Source of the DNA: Candidatus Bathyarchaeota archaeon
Lineage (GTDB): Archaea > Thermoproteota > Bathyarchaeia > Bathyarchaeales > Bathycorpusculaceae
Reading direction: 5' to 3'
NCBI GenBank assembly: GCA_963715865.1
Contig: OY970280.1
Location: 2,272,001 to 2,336,000 of the forward strand
DNA length: 64,000 nt
Shown: positions 4,126 to 22,606 of the stretch, piece by piece
How positions within the stretch are numbered: position 1 is the stretch's first letter
How the letters are laid out: the number at the start of each line of letters is the position of its first letter
Program-made: the position numbers and the translations under genes
Notes under the pieces: generated by a model
The model's database searches: none
Told to the model about the DNA's origin: nothing
What the model saw: only the letters and a program-made list of their open reading frames with translations

Positions 4126-6482
4126 TTGACATTGACCAGCAAAAATGTACACGTAAAGATAGATGAAATGAAGACTAGTACTGGTCTTATTAAGAACCTT
4201 GAAGTTTCTATAGGAAAAATTGTTAATGACAACTGGACCGAGCCCATGGGACCCACCCCAATGCCCTCACTAACAACCTTGAGGGACTGGGACATGAAGC
4301 TCCTCACCAGATACAAGCCCTTCTATATGCCTGATTGTGACCTCTGCTGCCTCTGCACTTATGGAAAATGCGATTTGACAGCTGGTAAACGTGGAGCTTG
4401 CGGTTTAGATATCGGTGCCCAATCGTCTCGTATAGTGCTTTTGGCTTGCAGTATTGGAGCGGCAACCCACACAGGTCACGCCCGTCATGTTGTTGACCAC
4501 TTGATCGAGAAATATGGTCGAAAGCATCCTATTGATGTAGGCGGCTTAAACGTTAAGGTTGAAGCTCCAGTAACGAGACTTGTCACTGGAATAAAACCTG
4601 AAACTCTTGGCGACCTAGAGGAAGTTTTGGAATACTGCGAAATGCAGATTACTCATTTACTCTCAGTTGCGCATACAGGCCAAGAAGGAAACAATTTGGA
4701 TTTTGAATCAAAGGCTTTTCATGCTGGTAGAATTGACCAAGTAGGCATGGAAGTCGCGGATATAGCTCAAATCTCAACACTAAACTTCCCGAAAGCTGAT
4801 CCTGAAGCGCCACTCATCAAAATGGGTATTGGATCTGTCGACACATCAAAACCAGTCATCATGTGCATCGGTCATAACGTCGTGCCCTCAGTTGGAATTA
4901 TCGATTACATGAAAGAAAGCAAGCTTGACGACAAAATGGAAGTCGTGGGATTATGTTGTACTGCCTTCGACAACACAAGATATTACGACCGAGCAAAAAT
5001 CGTCGGTCCAATCTCATGGCAACTACGCTTCATACGTGGAGGATTCGCAGATGTAGTCGTCCTTGACGAGCAATGTGTCCGAACAGATGCTTTTGATGAA
5101 GCACGCAAAGTTCGCGCTCCAGTCATCGCCGCGTCAGAGAAGAACTGTATGGGCTTTAAGAACCGCACAAACGACCCGGCAGACGAAATCGTCGCTGACC
5201 TTGTAAGCGGCAAAGTACCTGGTGTACTCATTCTTGACCCTGAAAAAGTCGGCGAAGTAGCAGTCAAAGTTGCAAAGCAAATAGCACCTATACGCAAGAA
5301 AATGACTAATCTTCCCACGATCGATGAAATAAAATCTCTTGCTAAAACCTGCAGACAATGCAACCTTTGCCAGAGAAGCTGTCCACAGGACCTTAGAATC
5401 CCCGCCGCGCTGAAAGCCGCCGCTGAAGGAAACCTTGCGCCATTAACTGACTTGTATGAAGAATGTATCGGTTGCGGACGCTGTGAAGAAGCATGCCCAG
5501 TCAAACTACAAATACACAGCTTCATAGTCAAAGCTGGCGAGAAGTCAATGACGGAAGAAAAGAACTTATGCCGTGCAGGCAGAGGCGCCGTCCAAGACAT
5601 AGAAATACGCAATGTCGGCAGCCCAATCGTACTCGGAGAAATTCCCGGCATACTTGCAGTCGTGGGTTGCGCAAACTATCCACATGGCGGCAAAGATGTC
5701 TATGATATATGCAGAGAATTTGCTCTACAGACGCTTTATAGTGGTAACATCAGGTTGCTCGGCCATGTCCGCAGGAAGCTACAGAAATGAAGAAGGCAAA
5801 ACATTATACGAGGAATTCTCAGGCGGATTTGAGGCTGGAGGAGTACTTAACGTCGGTTCATGTGTTGCAAATGCGCATATTGCAGGCGCCGCCATCAAAG
5901 TCGCTAACATCTTTGCAAAGAGGAACTTGCGAGGTAACTACGAGGAAATAGCTGATTATATCCATAACCGTGTAGGCGCAGTCGGCTTAGCTTGGGGTGC
6001 ATACTCGCAGAAAGCAGCATCAATTGCTTCTGGCTTCTGGAGTTTAGGCGTTCCAGTACTCGTTGGTCCACACGGCAGCAAATACCGGCGCATGCTCCTT
6101 GGTAGAGAGGACAAGCCTGAAGATTGGGAAGTTTACGATGCACGCACAGGCAACAAAGTAAACATCGGGCCAGTCTCCCGAACACTTGTTCCAAACAGTT
6201 GAAACACCACAAGAAGCAATGGTCGCCATCGCAAAACTATGCATCAGACCAAACGACACTTGGAAAGGACGCAGCATAAAACTAAGCCACTACGTAGACT
6301 TACACAAACGCTACTATGGATGCATGCCGCAGGACTTGCACTTGTTCGTGCGAACAATGGCTGATGTGCCAATGACACTGAAAGAAGAATTCACCAAGAT
6401 ACTGGAAGAGAAAGGCTGGAAGGAAACTGTGATTCCTGACCCAACATTGCTTCCAAGAATGATTCGTAAAATGAAGGAGTGA
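4126..6482 (+). CDS. cdhA: ACDS complex CODH alpha subunit, split into three track ORFs by +1 insertions near 5728 and 6176
   Basis: CDLCCLCTYGKC, GHN, CCTA, DEQC, 2x4Fe-4S, GCAN in 4126-5790; TSGC, GSCV, SQK in 5612-6202; C-terminus in 6186-6482. Removing one base at each site gives EFALRRFIVVTSGC and GPVPEHLFQTVE and a single ORF of about 784 aa. Confidence 0.93.
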
Positions 6483-11273: not shown

Positions 11274-12755
11274 ATAGGCTGCGGCATCTTTGGTGCAATA
11301 AACTATGAAAATCAACCTGTCTTTCCGTATGTTTACTGGGGTCTCCGAGCCCAAAACCACCGAGGTCATCAATCACACGGCTTCCTCACATACAACAACA
11401 AACAATTTTTTGTATACAAAAACTTAGATTTAGTTCCAAAAATAAAAACTAACGCCATACAAGAATGGTTCGGGCGCCTTCCAGGATCTATGGGCATCGG
11501 CAACGTTCGATACACAACGTCAGGCAAATGTGATGATGCCTCACTTATCCAAGGCACTCAACCAGTCACCGCTTCAGCAAATGGCATAAAACTTGCACTC
11601 TCATTCAACGGCAACATAGTTAACACTTTGCCGCTGAAAAAAGAAATGACCGAAAACTTCTCAGACTTCCTCTACAATTGCGACTCCGACATAGTATGCC
11701 ACAAAATGCTCCTTGGACTCAAACAAGGCAAAGACTTAGCATCCGCGGTTCGCTCCGTCATGGAAAGCTTAGACGGCGCATTCTCCGTAACAGGCCTAAC
11801 CGGAGACGGAGACTTTTTCGCCTTCAAAGACCCGCATGGAATAAAACCGCTATGCGCTGGGCATGACCCTGCTGGGGCAACCTACGCTTTTTCCTCCGAA
11901 ACCGCAAGCTTAGACATGAACAGTTTAGTAAGAGACTTCGAACTAAAACCAGGCGAATTAGTCACAGTTTCACAAGACGGCTTCAAACGCACACAAATCA
12001 TTAAAAACCCTCACCACGCTTTTTGCGCTTTCGAATACGCTTATTTTGCTAGGCCCGATTCAAGGTTTGACGACAAATACGTTTACGAAATACGCGAAGA
12101 GTTCGGCAGAAATATCGTTAAAGAATATCCTGAAATAGTAAAGAATAGCGACATGATTCTCTCAGTGCCTGAAACCGGCGATGACCCAGCCATGGGGGTC
12201 CATGAAGCATCAGGCTTACGATGGGAACGGGCATCAAGGCGGCACCGTTATGTTACCGAGAGAGCCTTCATACTCCTGAACATGGAGCGCTTTTCCACGA
12301 TTGATAGGAAAATCAACATTTTAGGTCCGAAAGTTAATGGTAAACGAGTTATCGTAACCGAAGACAGCATAGTCAGAGGGGACACAACCAAGGTAATTAT
12401 AGATAAATTACGAAAATCAGGAGCCAAAAAAATTTATGTCTTCGTTACTTTTCCACGAATTATCGGACCTTGCTTTTATGGAATTGACATGTCAACTTAC
12501 GGGCAACTCGTCGGCTCAAAACACAGCGCCGAAGAAATCGCTAAAATCATAGGTGCAGACGGCGTATGCTACCAGTCCATTGAGGGATTAATACGTGCCA
12601 CTGGTCAAACACAAGACGGGCTCTGTTTAGCCTGCATTACAGGCAAGTATCCAACCCCATGTGCTCAAAAAATGGCTGATGCCATGAAACAGAGATTCCT
12701 TGATGGCTACGAAGAAAAAACGAGAATTTACGAGTCGGATGAAATTCAACCCTAA
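11274..12755 (+). CDS. purF: Amidophosphoribosyltransferase; the real N-terminus is 72 codons upstream of the track start
   Basis: In-frame upstream read IGCGIFG...QNHRGHQSHG includes the catalytic Cys (11280-11282). NVRYTTSG, CAFEYAYFARPDS, VPETG, EDSIVRGDT, CFYGIDM, CLAC. Confidence 0.93.
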   Translation: MGCGIFGAINYENQPVFPYVYWGLRAQNHRGHQSHGFLTYNNKQFFVYKNLDLVPKIKTNAIQEWFGRLPGSMGIGNVRYTTSGKCDDASLIQGTQPVTASANGIKLALSFNGNIVNTLPLKKEMTENFSDFLYNCDSDIVCHKMLLGLKQGKDLASAVRSVMESLDGAFSVTGLTGDGDFFAFKDPHGIKPLCAGHDPAGATYAFSSETASLDMNSLVRDFELKPGELVTVSQDGFKRTQIIKNPHHAFCAFEYAYFARPDSRFDDKYVYEIREEFGRNIVKEYPEIVKNSDMILSVPETGDDPAMGVHEASGLRWERASRRHRYVTERAFILLNMERFSTIDRKINILGPKVNGKRVIVTEDSIVRGDTTKVIIDKLRKSGAKKIYVFVTFPRIIGPCFYGIDMSTYGQLVGSKHSAEEIAKIIGADGVCYQSIEGLIRATGQTQDGLCLACITGKYPTPCAQKMADAMKQRFLDGYEEKTRIYESDEIQP

Positions 12756-12816: not shown

Positions 12817-14232
12817 ATGGAAAAAATAGGTATACTGGTCGTTTCCTACGGCGCAAGAGAAGTCGCCATGGTTGACGCTCTTCTACAAAGCAGAAACTAC
12901 CAAGTGGAACTCTACATCGCCGATAAACAACGGAACCCTTTCAACGCAGAAAAAGCCGCAAAACACGTTGTCATCCCAAACCTTGACGTTGAAGAAATCT
13001 GCAAATTCGCTGAATCAAGCAAGGATAAAATCGATTTCGTTCTGGTCGGTTCAGAAAAACCCATAATTGAAGGAGTCCGCGACCTCGTTGAGAAACGCAC
13101 AGGTATACCGGTTATTTGTCCAAAGCAACAATACGCCATAGAAGTCAGCAAAATCGAGCAGCGGCTGCTTTTCCAAGAAATTGCGCCAGAAGCTAATCCG
13201 CGCTTCAAGATTTTTAATCCAGCCGATTACAATGGCAAAACGGAAGTTAAAAGTGCCGTTTACCGCTGGCTAGATGAGCTAGATAACCAAGCTGTGGTTA
13301 AGCCTGATAAGCCTGCTTTGGGAAAAGGCGTCGGCGTCTGGGGAGACCACTTTGCCACCCGAGAGCAACTTTTTGAGCATTTCATGTCCAACTTCCAATA
13401 CGGCTCAGTAATAATAGAGGAAAAGATAGATGGGGAAGAATCCAGTTTCATGGCTTTCTGTGATGGCAAACACTTTATTCCCATGCCAGATACACGTGAT
13501 TACAAGCGTGCCTTTGATGATGATAAAGGTCCGAACACTGGTGGAATGGGCTCATACAAGGACGTTGGCGACACATTGCCATTCTTGACTGCGGCTGAAC
13601 GGAAACAGGAACTTGCGTTAGCCAATAAAATTTTCAAAGGTTGGAAGGCTAAGATTAAAGATGATTCGGCGCTCAGAGGCGTGCCCCTATATCTTGCCTT
13701 CATGCACACTGGCCACGGGATTAAGGTTCTAGAGAACAACAGTCGTCCCGGCGACCCAGAAATAATCAACCTCCTTCCACTAATCAAAGATGATTTTGTT
13801 GACATATGCTTCAAAATGATTGAGGGAAACCTAACGAGTGCCAAGTTGGAAAAGGCGGCGACCGTTTTAACATATAAGGTTCCACCAGACTACGGCGGCT
13901 ACGCAGACATGTTCCCCAACCAAATAGACAAATCAGCCGTTAACACTCAAGTTGACCTCTCAAAAGCTTACGCGCTAACCAAAAAGTATGGTAATAGAAT
14001 ACGCATTTACCCTGGCTCCATGGAAACAAGAAACGGCAAAAACTACGCTTTGAAATCTCGTGCAGTCGGGGTCTTAGGCATCGGCAATAGCATCGAAGAA
14101 GCACGACAAATCAGCCTCGAAGGCACCAAAGCAATCACAGGTGGAGCATTATGGAACCGAACCGACGTCGCCTCAAAGCAGCATATTGCAAAAAGCGTTA
14201 GTCACATGGAGAACTTGAGGCGCAAAGCGTGA
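12817..14232 (+). CDS. purD: Phosphoribosylamine-glycine ligase (GAR synthetase)
   Basis: GKGVGV, IEEKIDGEE, RDYKRAFDDDKGPNTGGMGSY, ENNSRPGDPE. Confidence 0.95.
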   Translation: MEKIGILVVSYGAREVAMVDALLQSRNYQVELYIADKQRNPFNAEKAAKHVVIPNLDVEEICKFAESSKDKIDFVLVGSEKPIIEGVRDLVEKRTGIPVICPKQQYAIEVSKIEQRLLFQEIAPEANPRFKIFNPADYNGKTEVKSAVYRWLDELDNQAVVKPDKPALGKGVGVWGDHFATREQLFEHFMSNFQYGSVIIEEKIDGEESSFMAFCDGKHFIPMPDTRDYKRAFDDDKGPNTGGMGSYKDVGDTLPFLTAAERKQELALANKIFKGWKAKIKDDSALRGVPLYLAFMHTGHGIKVLENNSRPGDPEIINLLPLIKDDFVDICFKMIEGNLTSAKLEKAATVLTYKVPPDYGGYADMFPNQIDKSAVNTQVDLSKAYALTKKYGNRIRIYPGSMETRNGKNYALKSRAVGVLGIGNSIEEARQISLEGTKAITGGALWNRTDVASKQHIAKSVSHMENLRRKA

Positions 14233-15311
14233 AGCACATCTTCATTTCTGACTGTGAAGGACCAATCTCCAAAAACGACAACGCCTTCGAGTTAACAGCC
14301 CATTTTATTCCAGAAGGAGACAAACTTTTTGCTAACATAAGCAAGTACGACGATGTACTGGCGGATGTTCTGCGAAAGCCCAGTTACTCTGCAGGCAGCA
14401 CGTTGAAACTGGTTTTGCCTTTCTTTAAAGCGTACGATGTTACGGATAAGCAGATGGAGAACTTTTCAGAGAAAAACATTTTTTTAATCGCTAACAGCCA
14501 AAATACGCTTCGCTACGTGCAAGCTATAGCCAACGCCTTCATCGTCAGCACCAGTTACGAGCATTACATAAGAGCGCTGTGCAAAGCATTAGCATTCCCA
14601 TACGAAAACACTTACTGTACCAAACTAAGCCTAGACAAATACGCCATCACCCAACAAGAAAAAAAGCGCTTAAAGGAGATAGCGAAAGAAATCTCCCAAA
14701 TGCAAATAATCACAATTCCCCCAAAAGCAAAAAAAATAGAAAACTTTTCGCGCAATGACCAGATGGCAATTCAGCGCTTGGATGAGATTTTCTGGAACGA
14801 AATCCTCAAGATGGGCTCAGGTAAACTGCTTACCGATGTCGTAACAGTTGGCGGAGAACAAAAAGCCGAAGCAATCCGTGACGCCGTAAAACGTTTAAGT
14901 TCAAAAATAGCGGATGTGATGTACGTGGGCGACAGCATAACCGACGTGGGCGCCTTCAAACTGGTACGAGCCAACGACGGCTTAACCGTATCCTTTAATG
15001 GCAATAGTTACGCAGTTAAAAATGCTGAAGTAGCGGTTCTATCCGAAAATAATGTTATCACTGCTGTGATTGCTGATTTGTTCTGCAGATTTGGGAAAGA
15101 AAAAACAATGCGTACGCTTCGGTCTTGGAGTTATGAAGCGCTCAAAAAACGAGGAGTGGACGATGCTTTGCTAAGACAGCTCTCAGACCTGTATCCTGAT
15201 GCCTTGCCTAAAGCTCAAATAGTAACAGCTGAGAATACGGAAATGCTAGTAAAAGAAAGCAGCGAATTTAGGAAGAAAGTGCGAGGAGTAGCCATCGGGA
15301 GACTCGGATAA
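14229..15311 (+). CDS. HAD-superfamily phosphohydrolase, COG4030/'EhaR'-like
   Basis: HAD motifs: ISDCEGP (I), IVSTS (II), KAEAI (III), YVGDSITD (IV). The N-terminal FISDCEGPISKNDNAFEL matches my recollection of the EhaR-like family. GTG start overlaps the purD stop. Confidence 0.75.
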   Translation: MKHIFISDCEGPISKNDNAFELTAHFIPEGDKLFANISKYDDVLADVLRKPSYSAGSTLKLVLPFFKAYDVTDKQMENFSEKNIFLIANSQNTLRYVQAIANAFIVSTSYEHYIRALCKALAFPYENTYCTKLSLDKYAITQQEKKRLKEIAKEISQMQIITIPPKAKKIENFSRNDQMAIQRLDEIFWNEILKMGSGKLLTDVVTVGGEQKAEAIRDAVKRLSSKIADVMYVGDSITDVGAFKLVRANDGLTVSFNGNSYAVKNAEVAVLSENNVITAVIADLFCRFGKEKTMRTLRSWSYEALKKRGVDDALLRQLSDLYPDALPKAQIVTAENTEMLVKESSEFRKKVRGVAIGRLG

Positions 15312-16223
15312 ATGCCAAATAAAGCATTAATAGAGGACACGTACGCCGAAGCCTTTACTGGAATCTTTTGCCGGGTAATTGTTACAGCCGACGACGAGGA
15401 AACCTTGCGTAGGGCTGCTGAAGATTCAACAGCAACGCCATCCGTTGTGATTGGCAGAGTGGAAGGCGGAGTCGAAAAATACCTAAGCCAAAAAGAAACT
15501 CCTGATAAGCGCAAAGGCGCGATACTGCAGTTCTGGGGAGAAATAAACCCCAAAAAAGCCTTCGCTGAATCACTAAAAAAGTTTGAAACCGAGCTTTCCT
15601 ACCGCATCCGTCAAGACATCCTAGTCAAGCCTTTCACCGCTGTCTACGACGCTTTGACAAGTGCTGAAGGCAAAATGGACATGATGGAGAGTGTTGGGCA
15701 CTGCGGTGACGGCTATGAATGGGTTGAAAAGCGCCACGGTAGAGAAGTTATCGTTGTCCCGCTGATGGTTCCTGACTTTATCATTGAGCGGTACTTAGGC
15801 TATGGCCGCGGTGTCATGGGCGGCAATTTTTGGGTGATGTGTAAAACAAAAGAAGCCTTAAGGCAAGCAGGCGAAAAAGCCTTAGCAGCAATCCATAATG
15901 TACGTGGTATAGTTGCGCCCTTTGATGTCTGCTCTGCCGGCTCCAAGCCGGAAACTCATTTTCCCAAGATTGGTCCAACAACTAACCACCTGTATTGTCC
16001 CTCTCTTAAGGAGCGGTTAGGCAAAGAATCCAAGGTTCCTGAAGGTGTAGGCTACATAGCAGAGATAGTGATAGATGGGGTTTCTTTAGATGCTGTTAAA
16101 AAAGCTACCAAAGCTGGAATCGAAGCAGTGTTAGGCATTGATGGCGTCGTGAAGGTTTCCGCTGGCAACTACGGCGGCAAACTAGGCGAACACAAAATAT
16201 TTTTGCGAGAGCTGTTTCCATGA
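15312..16223 (+). CDS. ftr: Formylmethanofuran:H4MPT formyltransferase (Ftr)-like protein
   Basis: [57 protein letters not shown]...LF all follow Ftr. It is divergent from canonical Ftr in the middle. Confidence 0.88.
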
Positions 16224-17131
16224 CCAAATTTGACGTTATCGGTTTTGGTGCACTCAACGTTGATATGCTTTTCAAAGTCGATAGACTTGCGGGGGCTGAA
16301 GAGGAAAGCTTCATCGAAGAATACACTGAAGCCTGCGGTGGCTCAGCCGCGAATACCGTGGTTGGGTTGGCAAGGCTCGGGTGCAAAACAGGGTTCATAG
16401 GAAAAGTAGCCAATGACCGAGAAGGCAAACTGCAAATTGACTGTTTTAGCAATGAAGGCGTAGACACCAGTGGCATCATTCAGACAAAACAGGGAAAAAG
16501 CGGTTCAGTGCTGGGTTTCGTGGACAAGAAAGGTGCAAGGGCATTATACATTAATTCAGGCGTGAACGATTCAATTGAGCCTCGGGAATTGAAATGGGAT
16601 TATGTTTCTCAAACAAAATTTCTCCATCTATCATCCTTCGTGGGAGAAAAATCATTCCGTACACAAAAAAAGCTCTTAGGTTCACTGCCTAGCGATATTA
16701 AAATCAGCTTTGACCCAGGTTCAGTTTATGCACAGAAAGGTTTTGTAGCTATAGAACCAATAATTAGAAGTTCTTATGTTTTGATGCCTAACGCTGTTGA
16801 GCTTGAGCTTTTAACTGGAGAAGCTGATTACTGCAAAGGTGCCGATTTAATGATTGAGGTGGGCGTTAAAATTGTTGCAGTTAAACTTGGCAGCAAAGGC
16901 TGTTACGTTACTGATGGTCGAGAAAGGCTTAGGATAGAACCTTTTAAAGTTAAGGTGGTCGATACGACTGGTGCTGGGGATGCTTTTTGCGCTGGCTTTC
17001 TCTACGGCTTAATCAACAACAAAAGCTTATCCGAGTGTGGGCGTTTAGGCAATTTTGTTGCTTCAAGATGCGTAATGGAGATGGGCGCACGTGCGGGCTT
17101 GCCCTATGCTAAAGATTTAGCATCGATTTAG
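16220..17131 (+). CDS. PfkB/ribokinase-family sugar or nucleoside kinase
   Basis: [38 protein letters not shown]; ATGA overlap with the ftr-like gene. Confidence 0.92.
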
Positions 17132-17197: not shown

Positions 17198-17599
17198 TTA
17201 GCCGAAAACCAACTTTAGAAAGTCTACTTTACCAAAATGTTTTTGGTCGTTAGAATAAACTTCAGTAACTCCTAATCGCATCATCAAAGCAAGGTTTACA
17301 CCGTCATTAAAGTCTAAATTCTCAGCAATCATGTTATTTGCTCCTACCAACAGGTCATCGCCGCTGAAACCGATGACTTTTAAAGCCTTGTAGGACATCA
17401 TCTTTTCAAGACTAGGCTTGATATCCCCTTGCTTACCCATGGCTTCTAGTACCCAAGCTACCTCGCACATTACCAATGTAGAAGTTATGGCCAGTTCACC
17501 GTTTTCTATGCGTTCAAGAATATTCTTAGCGGTCTTCCCGAAAAGGGGGTGAGCCGTGAGAGCATAGATAAAGACGTTGGTGTCCACGAACCGAGTCAC
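17198..17599 (-). CDS. vapC: PIN-domain toxin
   Basis: FVDTNVFIY, E at helix 2, DFNDG, YSND acidic tetrad. Confidence 0.9.
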   Translation of the reverse strand: MTRFVDTNVFIYALTAHPLFGKTAKNILERIENGELAITSTLVMCEVAWVLEAMGKQGDIKPSLEKMMSYKALKVIGFSGDDLLVGANNMIAENLDFNDGVNLALMMRLGVTEVYSNDQKHFGKVDFLKLVFG

Positions 17600-18018: not shown

Positions 18019-18849
18019 TTAGCACTTCTTAGTTAAATTGTCAATTATGCTTTGGAAGATTAGTTTTCCGTCGCCGTACTGCAGCATTTGCTGTTGCCGT
18101 GTCCAGTCGGGCTGTTGCCACCAGTACATAGCTCTTTCAGGATGAGGCATCAAACCAAAAATATTCCCTTCCTTATTGCATATGCCAGCAATGTCATAGA
18201 AGGAACCATTCGGATTAGTTGGGTACTTGCCGTCAGCAGATTCGCCGTTTTTATCGCAGTATCGGAAAACAATCATGTCATCATCGATTAGTTTTGCAAG
18301 CATTTCCTGTTCTTTCTCCTTAGGGAACAGTAACCTTCCTTCTCCATGAGCAATAGGCATCCTGACCATTTTCCCAGCTGGGATTTTGTTTGTGAAAGCG
18401 CATTTTCCCTTGTTTTCGTGCTTGAGATAAACCCACTGGCACTTGAAACCTTGCGGCTCATTCGTAGTTAATGTGGCTTCAGGATAAGCGCTTACTCCCT
18501 CTAGGCCCGGAAGTAAACCGTACTCAACCAATATTTGGAAGCCGTTGCATACACCAAGAATTGGTCTGCCTTCATCAACAAACGTTTCAATCTCTTTGCC
18601 TAGCTTGGCACTAAGCCACCGCGCAAAAATCACGCCTGAACGCACATAATCGCCGAACGAGAAGCCGCCTGGAAAAACCAGCACCTGATAATCCAGCAGA
18701 TTTCGGCGTTTTATTAACTCGTTAACATGCAAGGTTTCCGCTTGCACGCCTAACTCTTGAAATGCCCGCTGGGTTTCTGAGTCGCAGTTGGTTCCGCCGA
18801 CGCGCATGACGCAGACTTTGATTTCTTCTTGGTTCATTTTAGGGCTCAC
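18019..18849 (-). CDS. purQ: FGAM synthase glutaminase subunit
   Basis: GGTNCD, PGGFSFGDY, LGVCNGFQIL, AHGEG, GLMPHPER. Confidence 0.95.
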   Translation of the reverse strand: MSPKMNQEEIKVCVMRVGGTNCDSETQRAFQELGVQAETLHVNELIKRRNLLDYQVLVFPGGFSFGDYVRSGVIFARWLSAKLGKEIETFVDEGRPILGVCNGFQILVEYGLLPGLEGVSAYPEATLTTNEPQGFKCQWVYLKHENKGKCAFTNKIPAGKMVRMPIAHGEGRLLFPKEKEQEMLAKLIDDDMIVFRYCDKNGESADGKYPTNPNGSFYDIAGICNKEGNIFGLMPHPERAMYWWQQPDWTRQQQMLQYGDGKLIFQSIIDNLTKKC

Positions 18850-21220
18850 CGCTTAACGTTTTTTTCCAGCTACGCCGCAGCTCGGCAAGTGAAGCGTCAA
18901 CTACAATTTTCTGGTTTAGTCCGTGAATGAGGAGTTTCTCGTCTTTAGTTACTTTGCCAATTTTAGAGCAGGTTTTACCTTTCATTAATGCCTCAAATTC
19001 TTGCCTATCTTTTTCCGAGACTTCCAAAAGGAAGCGACTGTTTGATTCCGAAAACAACACAAAGTCACTCCGCTCTAAAGCTTTGCCAGGCGCTTTACCT
19101 AAATCCAGCTCTAAGCCGTAGCCGCCTGCAAACGCCATCTCCGCCGCCGCCACCGCCAACCCGCCTTCAGAGAGGTCATGGCATGATTTGATTAAGCCCA
19201 AATCGATGGCTTTAGTTACAGCTTTGAATGTGCGTTTGGCTTTTGCGCCTTTTACTTTGGGCACGCTTGCGCCTAAGTAGCCTTTGAGCTTGTAGTATTC
19301 TGAACCGCCAAGTTCATTGAACGTTTCCCCGACAACATAGAGCAGATTACCGGGCGCTTTCAAATCCATAGACGTGGTAAATTGAATGTTAGGAACAATG
19401 CCTATAGCAGTAATTAGCAGTGTCGGTGTGACTGGACCCAGCGGGGACTCGTTGTAGAGGCTATCTTTTCCCGAGATAAACGGCGTTCTAAACGCTTTTG
19501 CAAAGTCGTAGCAGGCTTCGCAGGCTCTTACCAGCGAACCCAAGCGCTCTGGCTTTTCAGGATTACCCCAAGTGAAGTTATCCAGAAGTGCAATTCTTCT
19601 TCCGCCGACGGCAATGTTGTTTCTCACTGCCTCGTCAATGGCTGAAGCAGCCATCCAGTAAGCATCAATCTTCCCGTAATTTGGGTTCATCCCGCATGAA
19701 ATAGCTAAGCCTTTCAATGATTCGTCGAGGGGTTTCAGAACAGCGGCGTCGTTCGGTCCAGCGTACTCTCCCTGCAAGGGTTTAAGCGTAGTGTTTCCTT
19801 TTACCTCATGGTCATAAGTGCGTATGACGCTTTCTTTGCTGGCAATGTTTGGCGCAGAAAGAAGCTGCAGCAGGGTTTCGGTTAGGTTTTCTGGTTCAGG
19901 AAATTCTGGTTCCGTGAAGCTTAAGGTTTCAATGGTTGCTGTTTTCATGCTTTTGCAAGGATTAAACAGAAATGCCATATCCATGTCGGCAACTTTCTCG
20001 CCATGAAAATTCAGGTGTAGGCGGCGCTCGGTTGTTAGTTTGCCTATTGCTGTAGCTTGGACGTCTTCTTTCTCAAAAATCGCCATAACTCGCTCCAAGT
20101 TTTCCGGTGGCACGGTTAGGAGCATTCTTTCCTGCGATTCTGAAATGTAAACTTCCCACGGAGCCAAACCCTGATACTTCAACGGTACCTTGCCAAGTTC
20201 AATGGTCGCTCCGCAGTCGAATTTTTCGGCTGTTTCGCCGACGGCTGAGGATAAGCCTCCTCCGCCAAGATCAGTAGTCGACGATGCCAATAGGAGGTCG
20301 CGGATTTCTATTAATGCCCGTTTGACTTTCTCTTCTTCAATTGGGTCGGCGATTTGTACGGCTGGTCTTGAGATTTCTTCTGATTTCTCAGTTAATTCGG
20401 CTGAGGCGAAGGTTACGCCATGGATGCCGTCGCGTCCTGTTTTTCCACCTGCCAGCACAATTGCATGTTCAGGTTTGGCGTTTTTCATGAACTTATTTAA
20501 TGGCAAAAGTCCTATGCATCCGCAGTATACGGTGACGTTGCCTGTGTAGCTGTCGTCAAAGTATATTGCTCCGTTTACAGTTGGGATGCCCATGTTATTT
20601 CCATAAGCGCTAATGCCAGCGGTAACGCCCATGTACACGTACTTTGGATGTTTTACGCCTGCAGGAAGCTTGTTGTAATCGTAATCTAGTGGTCCGAAGC
20701 CTAAAACGTCTGTGCACGCGATTGGGTCTGCCCAGACACCGAGGATGTCTCGAATTACGCCGCCGACACCAGTAGCTGCGCCGCCGAAAGGTTCAACTGC
20801 TGACGGGTGGTTGTGGGTTTCAACTTTGGCGGCTATTCCATAGCCCTTGTCAAAACGGACGATGCCAGCGTTATCTTCGAAGACGCTGAAGCACCATGGT
20901 GGGTTGATTTCTTTTGTGGCTTTTGCAATGTAAGTTTTGAAGAGGCTGTCGATTTCTTTGCCGTCCAAGCGGATTTTTCCTTTGAAGGTTTTGTGGTAGC
21001 AGTGTTCTGACCATGTTTGGCTGATGGTTTGCAGCTCCACATCCGTTGGGTTTCTGTCTTCCTTCTTGAAGTAGGCTTGGATACTCTTCATTTCTTGTAG
21101 GCTTGAGCCTAATGCTAGCTCGTTGCTTATTTCGGCGAGTTGTTGGTCGGTGGCTTTGGCTAAGGCTACCTCGTAGAGCGCATAACTGGTTTTACGGTGG
21201 ATGTAGAGGTTATCGTTCAT
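18839..21220 (-). CDS. purL: FGAM synthase synthetase subunit
   Basis: WSEHCYH, KVETHNHPS, GVGGVIRD, DLGGGG, SESQERM, SGKDSLYN, HDLSEGG. Confidence 0.96.
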   Translation of the reverse strand: MNDNLYIHRKTSYALYEVALAKATDQQLAEISNELALGSSLQEMKSIQAYFKKEDRNPTDVELQTISQTWSEHCYHKTFKGKIRLDGKEIDSLFKTYIAKATKEINPPWCFSVFEDNAGIVRFDKGYGIAAKVETHNHPSAVEPFGGAATGVGGVIRDILGVWADPIACTDVLGFGPLDYDYNKLPAGVKHPKYVYMGVTAGISAYGNNMGIPTVNGAIYFDDSYTGNVTVYCGCIGLLPLNKFMKNAKPEHAIVLAGGKTGRDGIHGVTFASAELTEKSEEISRPAVQIADPIEEEKVKRALIEIRDLLLASSTTDLGGGGLSSAVGETAEKFDCGATIELGKVPLKYQGLAPWEVYISESQERMLLTVPPENLERVMAIFEKEDVQATAIGKLTTERRLHLNFHGEKVADMDMAFLFNPCKSMKTATIETLSFTEPEFPEPENLTETLLQLLSAPNIASKESVIRTYDHEVKGNTTLKPLQGEYAGPNDAAVLKPLDESLKGLAISCGMNPNYGKIDAYWMAASAIDEAVRNNIAVGGRRIALLDNFTWGNPEKPERLGSLVRACEACYDFAKAFRTPFISGKDSLYNESPLGPVTPTLLITAIGIVPNIQFTTSMDLKAPGNLLYVVGETFNELGGSEYYKLKGYLGASVPKVKGAKAKRTFKAVTKAIDLGLIKSCHDLSEGGLAVAAAEMAFAGGYGLELDLGKAPGKALERSDFVLFSESNSRFLLEVSEKDRQEFEALMKGKTCSKIGKVTKDEKLLIHGLNQKIVVDASLAELRRSWKKTLSGEP

Positions 21221-21468
21221 TTCTGCTCCTCAACGGTTATTGTGTAGTTGTCTTTGGTTGGGTTTGCCAAAAGGCGTTTACTCATTTCTTCCGCCTTTGC
21301 CTTGGCTTCTTTAATTGTTGGTGCATCAAGAATGACAGTGTAAACTTTGCTCACGTCTACTGCTTCTACTTTGTAGCCGAGTTCTTTTAATAAACGGGCT
21401 GTTGTTTCCCCTTCAGGATTGCTGTGACCTGGTTTGAGGCTGACCTCTATTTTAGCGCGGTATTTCAT
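21217..21468 (-). CDS. purS: FGAM synthase PurS subunit
   Basis: LKPGHSNPEG...LLANP; overlaps the purL start. Confidence 0.92.
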   Translation of the reverse strand: MKYRAKIEVSLKPGHSNPEGETTARLLKELGYKVEAVDVSKVYTVILDAPTIKEAKAKAEEMSKRLLANPTKDNYTITVEEQK

Positions 21469-21526: not shown

Positions 21527-22606
21527 TTACGTCAATATCATCTTTTTGTTTTGGTAGTGTATTTCTACAGTTTGTTTTTCTGTTACTTTGCCGATTATTT
21601 CAGGTTTTGAGCTGTCTTGCTCTAGCGTGTTCATGGCTTTATCAATTTCTGTTTTGTCTACGATTATGCCGAAGCCCCAGCCCATGTTGAAGGTTTTGAA
21701 CATTTCCTCGTCTGTAATAGTATAGCCTAATTCAGCCGCCGTTTTTTGAATCAATCCGAAAATGGGTTGGGGTTTAAAGTTGGTAAATTCAAAGCCTATG
21801 CCTGGCGAGAAACTGACAAGGTTGTTGAATTTCATGTACGCGTCGCCCGTTATGTGTACTGCTGCTTTGACTTTTACTTCGCCCGCTAGTTTGAGTAGTG
21901 GCTTAACGTAAATTTTTGTTGGTTCAAGGGCTTCAAGGGCTATTTCCCTGTCCAAGCCTGCTGGGGTGTCGTTTGGCTGGTATTTTCCGCCCCATTGCTT
22001 AAAGAGGATTTTTCTTGCCATTGTTATGCCATTGCTGTGCAATCCGTTGCTGGCTAAGCCTATTATTGGGTCGCCAGGTTTGATGTTTTCTCCGGTGATG
22101 ATTTCTTGCCTTTCAACTTGACCTACTGAAGCGACCACCATGTCGAAGCCTGCGTTTTCTGTTAAGCCTCTTATTATTTCAGCTACGTCGCCTGTTTCTC
22201 CGCCTGTAACTGGGCATTCTGCTTCAGCGGCGCCTTGGATGATTCCTTTTAGCCATGCTTTTACAAGCTGGGGTTCGCTTGCTTGAGTATGAATGTTATC
22301 CACTATGGCGAGCGGTTTAGCTCCTGAACGGATTACGTCGTTGACTGCCATGGCTACTGCGTCTATGCCTATGGTATCATATTTCTGTGCTAATTGTGCT
22401 ATGAGGACTTTGGTGCCTACGCCTTCGATGACAAGGTCCAGAAAAGTGTTTTCTCCGATTGGAAAAATGTTACCATATGGCAGATGCATTACGCCGCCAT
22501 AGCGGCTGTGCTTGTAGGTTTCCTGCAGGCTTTTTAGGGCTTTTTTTGATTCTGCGCGTTGTTTGCGGTTTACGCCTGCATCGCTGTAAGTGTAATTTTT
22601 AGGCAA
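21527..22606 (-). CDS. purM: AIR synthetase
   Basis: YSDAGV, EGVGTK, VAMAVND, GGETG, GLHSNG, HITG, TFNMGWG. Confidence 0.93.
   Translation of the reverse strand: MPKNYTYSDAGVNRKQRAESKKALKSLQETYKHSRYGGVMHLPYGNIFPIGENTFLDLVIEGVGTKVLIAQLAQKYDTIGIDAVAMAVNDVIRSGAKPLAIVDNIHTQASEPQLVKAWLKGIIQGAAEAECPVTGGETGDVAEIIRGLTENAGFDMVVASVGQVERQEIITGENIKPGDPIIGLASNGLHSNGITMARKILFKQWGGKYQPNDTPAGLDREIALEALEPTKIYVKPLLKLAGEVKVKAAVHITGDAYMKFNNLVSFSPGIGFEFTNFKPQPIFGLIQKTAAELGYTITDEEMFKTFNMGWGFGIIVDKTEIDKAMNTLEQDSSKPEIIGKVTEKQTVEIHYQNKKMILT

Follow-up and report, generated by a model that had tools for sequence, protein, structure and literature searches.

How does a genome make purines when it encodes no recognised enzyme for step 3, the formylation of glycinamide ribonucleotide (GAR)? 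The question is raised by a stretch of 64,000 nt (the window) of contig OY970280.1 of Candidatus Bathyarchaeota archaeon, whose single-contig genome has 2,354,843 bases and is 97.86% complete. The purine cluster in the window holds the genes for steps 1, 2, 4 and 5 (purF, purD, purQLS and purM), a reading in the original prediction with which both the open reading frames (ORFs) and the family matches agree. Directly after purD are genes for a HAD-superfamily protein (the HAD-type protein), for a divergent paralogue, Ftr2, of the formylmethanofuran:tetrahydromethanopterin (H4MPT) formyltransferase Ftr, and for a PfkB-family kinase. Is step 3 to be found in this trio? Comparative genomics makes it the best candidate for the archaeal step 3, and we consider it probable, at about 0.6, that Ftr2 is the enzyme that formylates either GAR or its riboside, with formyl-H4MPT or formyl-methanofuran (formyl-MFR) as the donor.

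The gap itself is plain: step 3 is without any recognised enzyme in this genome. Across the whole closed genome the PurN models PF00551 and TIGR00639 give no matches at E ≤ 1, and there is no PurT (TIGR01142 / NF006766). The best ATP-grasp match to the PurT model, at 48 bits, is the methanofuran enzyme MfnD, the gene of which adjoins MfnA and MfnF. The absence of purN and purT, first noted for the cluster, therefore extends to the entire chromosome under a genome-wide profile search. PurH was likewise searched for in the whole genome and was not found. A second cluster, purE-purC-purP-purP at C1:1434881-1439300, covers steps 6, 7 and 9 and includes two tandem PurP paralogues.

The plus strand of the locus carries cdhA-E, purF, purD, the HAD-type gene, Ftr2 and PfkB, in that order, and these converge with purQ, purL, purS and purM on the minus strand. 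From purF onwards the features are:

11274..12755 (frame open from 11262), plus strand: purF, amidophosphoribosyltransferase, step 1; TIGR01134 model 1-432, 313 bits on the open frame
12817..14232, plus strand: purD, GAR synthetase of a divergent type, step 2; GARS_N/A/C, and TIGR00877 at 238 bits (cut-off 288)
14229..15311, plus strand: HAD-superfamily protein (EhaR-like), probable phosphotransferase; weak Hydrolase_3/HAD matches
15312..16223, plus strand: Ftr2, divergent formylmethanofuran:H4MPT formyltransferase paralogue, proposed step-3 formyltransferase; PF01913 and PF02741
16220..17131, plus strand: PfkB-family kinase (EhaT-like, ribokinase-like); PF00294, 182 bits
17198..17599, minus strand: PIN-domain gene, between PfkB and purQ
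18019..18849, minus strand: purQ, glutaminase subunit, step 4; GATase_5, 234 bits
18839..21220, minus strand: purL, step 4; AIRS, AIRS_C and FGAR-AT_linker
21217..21468, minus strand: purS, small subunit, step 4; an 83-aa ORF whose ortholog in a relative has PF02700, kept in 62 of 80 related loci
21527..22606, minus strand: purM, step 5; AIRS and AIRS_C

The junctions along the trio were read in the sequence and are as originally described. The GTG start of the HAD-type gene at 14229 overlaps the purD stop TGA at 14230-14232 (GTGA), the TAA of the HAD-type gene at 15309-15311 directly abuts the ATG of Ftr2 at 15312, and the ATG of PfkB at 16220 overlaps the Ftr2 TGA at 16221-16223 (ATGA). The four genes from purD to PfkB are therefore translationally coupled.

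Is Ftr2 just the Ftr of this organism? Both lobes of the fold are full length (PF01913, 151 bits, profile positions 4-142 of 142; PF02741, 184 bits, positions 1-149 of 149), and there is no sequence relation to the PurN / Formyl_trans_N fold with its N-x-H...D triad. A canonical copy, Ftr1, is encoded elsewhere, at C1:1759744. Against the Archaeoglobus fulgidus Ftr (1M5H), Ftr1 scores 313 bits and Ftr2 180 bits, and the two proteins of this genome share 37% identity. Trees of representatives drawn from 1.8 billion proteins separate Ftr2 and canonical Ftr into clades with an SH-aLRT of 100, with Ftr1 grouping with the canonical enzymes. The Ftr-like protein is thus neither the sole copy in its genome nor a member of the canonical group. 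Ftr2 scores 236 bits against TIGR03119, under the cut-off of 292.6, and 341 bits against NCBIfam NF002554, above its cut-off. Glu251 of Ftr2 aligns with Glu246 of 1M5H and is invariant in 83 Ftr2 sequences and in both subclades; the catalytic, oxyanion-stabilising glutamate is Glu245 in the Methanopyrus kandleri Ftr and Glu252 in FhcD (PMC6926001). A literature search for residues with which Ftr contacts its coenzymes yielded nothing of use apart from this Glu. Three cysteines (Cys131, Cys207 and Cys229) are also invariant in both subclades and specific to Ftr2, with Ala at these positions in Ftr1. They may form a metal or redox site.

Further evidence for the proposal is the distribution of Ftr2 across 301 Bathyarchaeia species genomes. 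A profile for Ftr2 separates it (at least 320 bits) cleanly from Ftr1 (about 250-270 bits), and finds it in 113 of the 301 genomes, including one (G062) in which the copy is cut by the contig end. Among the 188 genomes without Ftr2, PurN or a PurN-like protein is present in 121 and PurT in 13 (134 genomes). PurN-type matches (E ≤ 1e-10) occur in 122 of the 301 genomes and in none of the Ftr2-carrying families f1-f8, f14, f23 and f26. None of the 13 genomes with PurT-type proteins has Ftr2. Two matches of 171-175 bits to the PurT model do occur in Ftr2 genomes; the one in G277, once checked, was rejected as PurT because it is PurK, and the one in G001 (175 bits, 383 aa) is probably PurK.

Ftr2 and PurN-like or PurT proteins are therefore nearly mutually exclusive, with a single overlap, G149. 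This genome was rejected as a true carrier of both, as the catalytic Asn and His are replaced by Ser and Lys in its PurN-like protein. On its 11-kb contig (L115:465-3980) that PurN-like gene adjoins FolD and a PurH1-like gene, which may be either contamination or a folate-type set in decay within an Ftr2 genome. Phylogenetic profiling against purN and purT absence accordingly comes out in favour of the original prediction, with neither enzyme in 112 of the 113 Bathyarchaeia genomes that carry Ftr2. PurD is found in 247 of the 301 genomes, and the families without it (f15, f17 and f20) carry none of the three formyltransferase types. By a hand tally of the rows listed, nearly every genome that bears the pathway has exactly one type.

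Changes between types are seen within families. One (f12) has Ftr2 in G011 and G035, PurT in eight genomes and PurN in G064; in another (f22), Ftr2 alternates with an enzyme of the PurN superfamily. PurD differs as well: where linked to the trio it is of a low-scoring type (240-275 bits), seen in all Ftr2-carrying Bathyarchaeia families, and in genomes with PurN or PurT it scores 330-513 bits. The trio is combined with a canonical-type PurD in G031 and in the Asgard genome G342. A further PurN-like paralogue of 271 aa (L101:6085-6900; L095:9002-9817), distinct in its C-terminus, has both the phosphate loop and the catalytic triad intact. It stands beside a true PurN and FolD in one Bathyarchaeia family, and alone, away from pur genes, in another (f19, 62 of 71 genomes).

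Is the position of the trio after purD conserved as well? In 80 Bathyarchaeia loci with an Ftr2 at least 75% identical to the window copy, the neighbours of Ftr2 include PfkB in 75, the HAD-type gene in 71, purQ in 70, purD in 67, purL in 66 and purF in 65. The trio also lies inside the pur cluster in G011, the Ftr2 of which is 59% identical, and in G031, and pur genes remain linked to Ftr2 in Bathyarchaeia, Asgard archaea and Altiarchaeota alike. One correction concerns the C1 genes encoded next door, the cdh genes for acetyl-CoA decarbonylase/synthase. cdhE is a neighbour in only 18 of the 80 loci, so the adjacency of cdh is an incidental detail of the lineage. In some related loci (L041, L050, L067-L069, L078 and L084) the HAD-type gene and Ftr2 are separated by roughly 1 kb of additional DNA. 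Three bins labelled 'Euryarchaeota archaeon' (L076, L088 and L089) contain a Bathyarchaeia-type Ftr2, 77-79% identical, with no pur, HAD or PfkB gene beside it, for which relocation, mis-binning or gene transfer may account.

In related Bathyarchaeia the gene directly after purD tells its own story. It is PurT in f13 and f18 (for example purF'-purF-purD-purT in G016) and PurN in f25, f27 and f30. In f32 (G176), a PurN-like gene, PurN and FolD follow purD, with purQ-purL-purM convergent as in the window. In families with Ftr2, HAD-Ftr2-PfkB occupies this slot. Within f22 the central gene has been swapped: G028 and G140 read purF-purD-[Formyl_trans_N-type gene, 330 aa]-HAD-PfkB, followed in G028 by FolD. 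The centre of the module can thus be either of two unrelated formyltransferases, with HAD and PfkB retained. In f9, G010 and G002 have purF-purD-[Formyl_trans_N-type gene], with the HAD-type gene about 12 kb off in G010 and PfkB beside the HAD-type gene in G002. The stand-in enzyme retains the N-x-H and Asp of PurN, and its best matches among solved structures are GAR transformylases throughout. The N-terminal S-G-x-G-S-N loop, which binds the GAR phosphate in PurN, reads S-(T/S)-G-R-D-(R/E) in the stand-in, with acidic residues in the loop. HAD and PfkB accompany a formyltransferase of either fold, and never canonical PurN or PurT. The HAD-type gene is found in 120 of the 301 genomes, these being nearly all of the Ftr2 genomes, five checked swap-type genomes, and G239 and G169 (partial match), which carry it without Ftr2. 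It is absent from all 71 f19, all 43 f30 and all four f18 genomes.

Outside Bathyarchaeia, the two Asgard loci L117 and L118 read purQ-purL-purF-purD-Ftr2, another (L125, genome G342) reads purF-purD-HAD-Ftr2-PfkB-purL-purQ-purM, and Ftr2-purL-purQ occurs on a contig from Altiarchaeota. Neither a PF00551 match nor PurT was found in the closed Asgard genome G301. An Ftr2-type gene is present in 21 of 121 Asgard genomes, 14 of which have neither PurN nor PurT. In L117 (7051-8322) and L118 (7020-8297) an M20-family peptidase/deacylase gene directly follows Ftr2, and these genomes are without the HAD-type gene.

What might the two partners contribute? The HAD-type protein is a homologue of AF1437 of A. 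fulgidus, PDB 1Y8A (107 bits, E 1e-29, residues 3-298). HAD motifs I-IV are present as D8, S107-T108, K212 and D235/D239, with motif I reading D-x-E instead of D-x-D, and the stretches D8-x-E10-G-P, S107-T-S, K212 and G234-D-S-I-T-D239 are invariant (75-78 sequences). Feature-based look-alike clusters of this protein include 'EhaR'. The best NCBIfam match of the PfkB protein is ribokinase (TIGR02152), at 167.5 bits, which does not reach the cut-off of 299.65. It retains the ribokinase-type G-A-G-D, N-x-x-E, N-x-D and G-G sugar-binding motifs, and N13, D15, G40-G41-S42, N45, N191-x-x-E194 and T250-G-A-G-D254 are invariant (79 sequences). At the G-G-x position it has Ser42, where Escherichia coli ribokinase has Lys43. 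With their catalytic motifs invariant, the HAD-type and PfkB proteins look catalytically competent rather than like scaffolds. A complex prediction for the two (alignments A4, A5) gave a score of 0.00, which counts neither for nor against a complex.

We therefore read HAD-Ftr2-PfkB as a putative purine module that would supply step 3 in archaea that use H4MPT and methanofuran and are without PurN and PurT. The proposed catalyst would be Ftr2, with the Ftr fold and the oxyanion-stabilising Glu kept. It would move the formyl group from N5-formyl-H4MPT or formyl-MFR to the primary amine of either GAR or its riboside, much as Ftr passes it to the aminomethyl group of methanofuran. Nothing in the genome comparisons has overturned the original prediction of an Ftr paralogue at the heart of a GAR formylation system, although the function, with its substrate and donor and the roles of the HAD-type and PfkB proteins, is the part that we infer. 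The C8 labelling of Methanosphaera stadtmanae and Methanobrevibacter smithii quoted in PMC3261824 would fit formyl-H4MPT as the donor.

A tentative extension, which we regard as doubtful, is that the HAD-type protein dephosphorylates GAR, Ftr2 or its PurN-superfamily stand-in formylates the resulting glycinamide riboside, and PfkB re-phosphorylates the product to formylglycinamide ribonucleotide (FGAR). This is one of several possible roles for the two partners. Such a route would spend one ATP to trap the product of a near-equilibrium transfer from low-potential formyl-H4MPT or formyl-MFR. Support for it comes from the catalytic motifs of both partners and the riboside-type sugar motifs of PfkB, from the way in which both track a formyltransferase of either fold, and from the acidic N-terminal loop of the stand-in beside its intact PurN triad. 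An Asgard lineage in which purD-Ftr2 stands without a HAD-type gene argues against it.

That lineage is also one of several observations that weigh against step-3 formylation by the module as a whole. In G301, G314 and G325 even a profile search finds no HAD-type gene, so HAD is not always needed, and the need for a phosphatase-type and a kinase-type enzyme is unexplained. Seven of the 21 Asgard carriers of Ftr2 also have PurN, as does Methanoliparum, and Ftr2 coexists with PurN in ANME-2a/b (PMC9012536). The Ftr2 copies of the seven Asgard genomes form a deep subclade of their own and are not located near pur genes, and their gene contexts give no functional hint. The counts themselves need care. 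Only 44 of the 301 genomes pass the PurN cut-off, none passes the TIGR01142 cut-off for PurT, and many of the proteins counted are sub-threshold, although the sub-threshold PurN-like proteins retain the phosphate loop and catalytic triad and PurT is the best-matching family for the PurT-like proteins. Related genomes do not count as independent cases, so that perhaps four to six switches underlie the exclusive pattern. On the chemical side, the view has been cited that formyl-H4MPT is no biosynthetic formyl donor (PMC3261824), and transfer from N5-formyl-H4MPT to the methanofuran amine is at about +4 kJ/mol (PMC6926001) and so needs pulling.

Could Ftr2 instead be a second formylmethanofuran:H4MPT formyltransferase, an isoenzyme for a coenzyme variant or for regulation, placed among the pur genes for co-regulation of C1 supply? 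Its score against NF002554 and its retained catalytic Glu would suit such a role, as would those Ftr2-type genes that stand apart from pur genes in genomes with PurN, and the Methanothermobacter gene that is cotranscribed with Eha hydrogenase genes (PMC3087415). We think it unlikely, since it explains neither the near-exclusive distribution with PurN and PurT, nor the shared slot after purD, nor the replacement of Ftr2 by a PurN-superfamily enzyme within the same module. Every checked carrier, moreover, already has Ftr1, and step 3 would still be without an enzyme. Or might another protein formylate GAR, such as a PurP-type ATP-grasp enzyme with formate and ATP, leaving the trio to nucleoside or ribose salvage or to mending unstable intermediates of the purine pathway? 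Nucleoside salvage commonly involves kinases of the PfkB family and HAD phosphatases. The tandem PurP paralogues of this genome, and a second PurP cluster of unknown function (PMC3261824), would also be in keeping with this. PurP is present in every carrier checked, but G301, G314 and G011, which have Ftr2 and neither PurN nor PurT, yield one PurP match each, and PurP is single in Methanobacteriales (PMC3261824). This argues both against a second PurP at step 3 and against Ftr2 at step 9. A salvage role would in addition leave unexplained why a formyltransferase stands at the centre of the module and why it is swapped for another formyltransferase, and we judge this explanation improbable.

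The single PurP bears in the same way on the idea that the module acts on some other amine, either AICAR at step 9 or glycine, which would become N-formylglycine and be ligated by the divergent PurD to phosphoribosylamine, giving FGAR directly. The low-scoring PurD linked to the module is what such a ligation might lead one to expect, and Ftr-type chemistry might accept any primary amine. Yet step 9 is covered by PurP in all checked carriers, the module excludes step-3 enzymes and not PurH or PurP, a canonical-type PurD stands alongside the trio in G031 and G342, and the kinase and phosphatase are left without a role. Action on another amine therefore seems to us very unlikely, and formylation of GAR or its riboside by Ftr2 is the reading that we carry forward.

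Some features of the surrounding genes deserve record. The purF frame upstream of ATG 11490 encodes G-C-G-I-F-G, including the catalytic Cys, with no ATG, GTG or TTG ahead of these codons; the sole preceding candidate is ATA at 11274. With no standard start before the catalytic N-terminus, standard ORF calling begins at 11490 and loses the Cys. The true start is upstream of ATG 11490 and the gene is intact; truncation with loss of the Cys was rejected because the open upstream frame encodes it. In the same region cdhA (4126-6202, plus strand) consists of two overlapping ORFs, 4126-5790 and 5612-6202, which match successive segments of the Prismane/CO dehydrogenase profile (129-380 and 377-486). 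The gene may be genuinely split, or a frameshift or an error in sequencing may divide it. The PIN-domain gene (17198-17599, minus strand) is found in only 2 of the 80 related loci and so probably represents a toxin-type gene that was inserted recently.

What would a role for Ftr2 in step 3 mean? De novo purine synthesis ranks among the most familiar of pathways, yet no GAR formyltransferase is known from Archaeoglobi, Methanobacteriales and M. kandleri (PMC3261824), a gap that dates from at least 2011. It extends to ANME-1 and, by the counts given here, to large parts of Bathyarchaeia and Asgard archaea. If the proposal is correct, a third, non-homologous GAR formyltransferase that uses the H4MPT/methanofuran pool closes this gap and ties nucleotide synthesis directly to the C1 pool of the archaeal Wood-Ljungdahl pathway and methanogenesis. 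It would also put right the labelling of thousands of genes as 'Ftr' or 'hydrogenase subunit EhaS', give a reason for cotranscription with the anaplerotic Eha hydrogenase, and improve metabolic models of uncultured archaea. The riboside route, if true, would be a new way to drive an unfavourable group transfer. An uncharacterised Ftr2 clade was reported in 2022 from Archaeoglobi, Methanobacteriales, M. kandleri and ANME-1, and the same paper states separately that ANME-1 has neither PurN nor PurT, the two points being left unjoined (PMC9012536). Our literature search found no paper that assigns Ftr2 to GAR formylation.

How does the module compare with known systems? It is a known enzyme family put to new use, with two unexplained partners. 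The closest relatives of Ftr2 are Ftr (EC 2.3.1.101; 1FTR/2FHJ, 1M5H, 1M5S) and FhcD (6S6Y), which it resembles in both Pfam domains, in 37-40% identity and in the catalytic Glu. For Ftr2 we propose the chemistry of Ftr, in which a formyl group passes between N5 of H4MPT and a primary amine. Unlike Ftr and FhcD, Ftr2 belongs to a separate clade, has three Cys for Ala, lies in purine operons and coexists with Ftr1; the acceptor of Ftr is methanofuran, whereas GAR or its riboside is proposed for Ftr2. PurN (10-formyl-THF, that is, formyl-tetrahydrofolate) and PurT (formate and ATP) make FGAR, the product proposed here, and share the slot after purD in related Bathyarchaeia. They have no relation to Ftr2 in sequence or fold, use another formyl donor, and act alone, whereas HAD-type and PfkB genes accompany Ftr2 in most cases.

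The partners have counterparts as well. AF1437 (PDB 1Y8A, 'hypothetical protein') is like the HAD-type protein in its D-x-E-G-P motif and comes from an organism without PurN and PurT (PMC3261824); its structure comes from structural genomics, and no function has been assigned to it. The Methanothermobacter eha operon ends in Ftr-like and ribokinase-like genes, which were named EhaS and EhaT in 2011 for their cotranscription with eha (PMC3087415), and our literature search on EhaS and EhaT found nothing beyond that paper. EhaR-EhaS-EhaT, at the end of ehaA-T, would be the same three protein types in organisms without PurN and PurT (PMC3087415, PMC3261824), and Ftr2 was reported for Methanothermobacter in the 2022 tree (PMC9012536). 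This likeness is drawn from PMC3087415, PMC9012536 and the feature-based look-alike search, not from alignment. The setting differs: there the trio ends a hydrogenase operon and the paper treats the Eha proteins as hydrogenase subunits, while here it follows purF-purD, with no hydrogenase genes in positions 1-30000 of the window and with pur and cdh genes as its neighbours.

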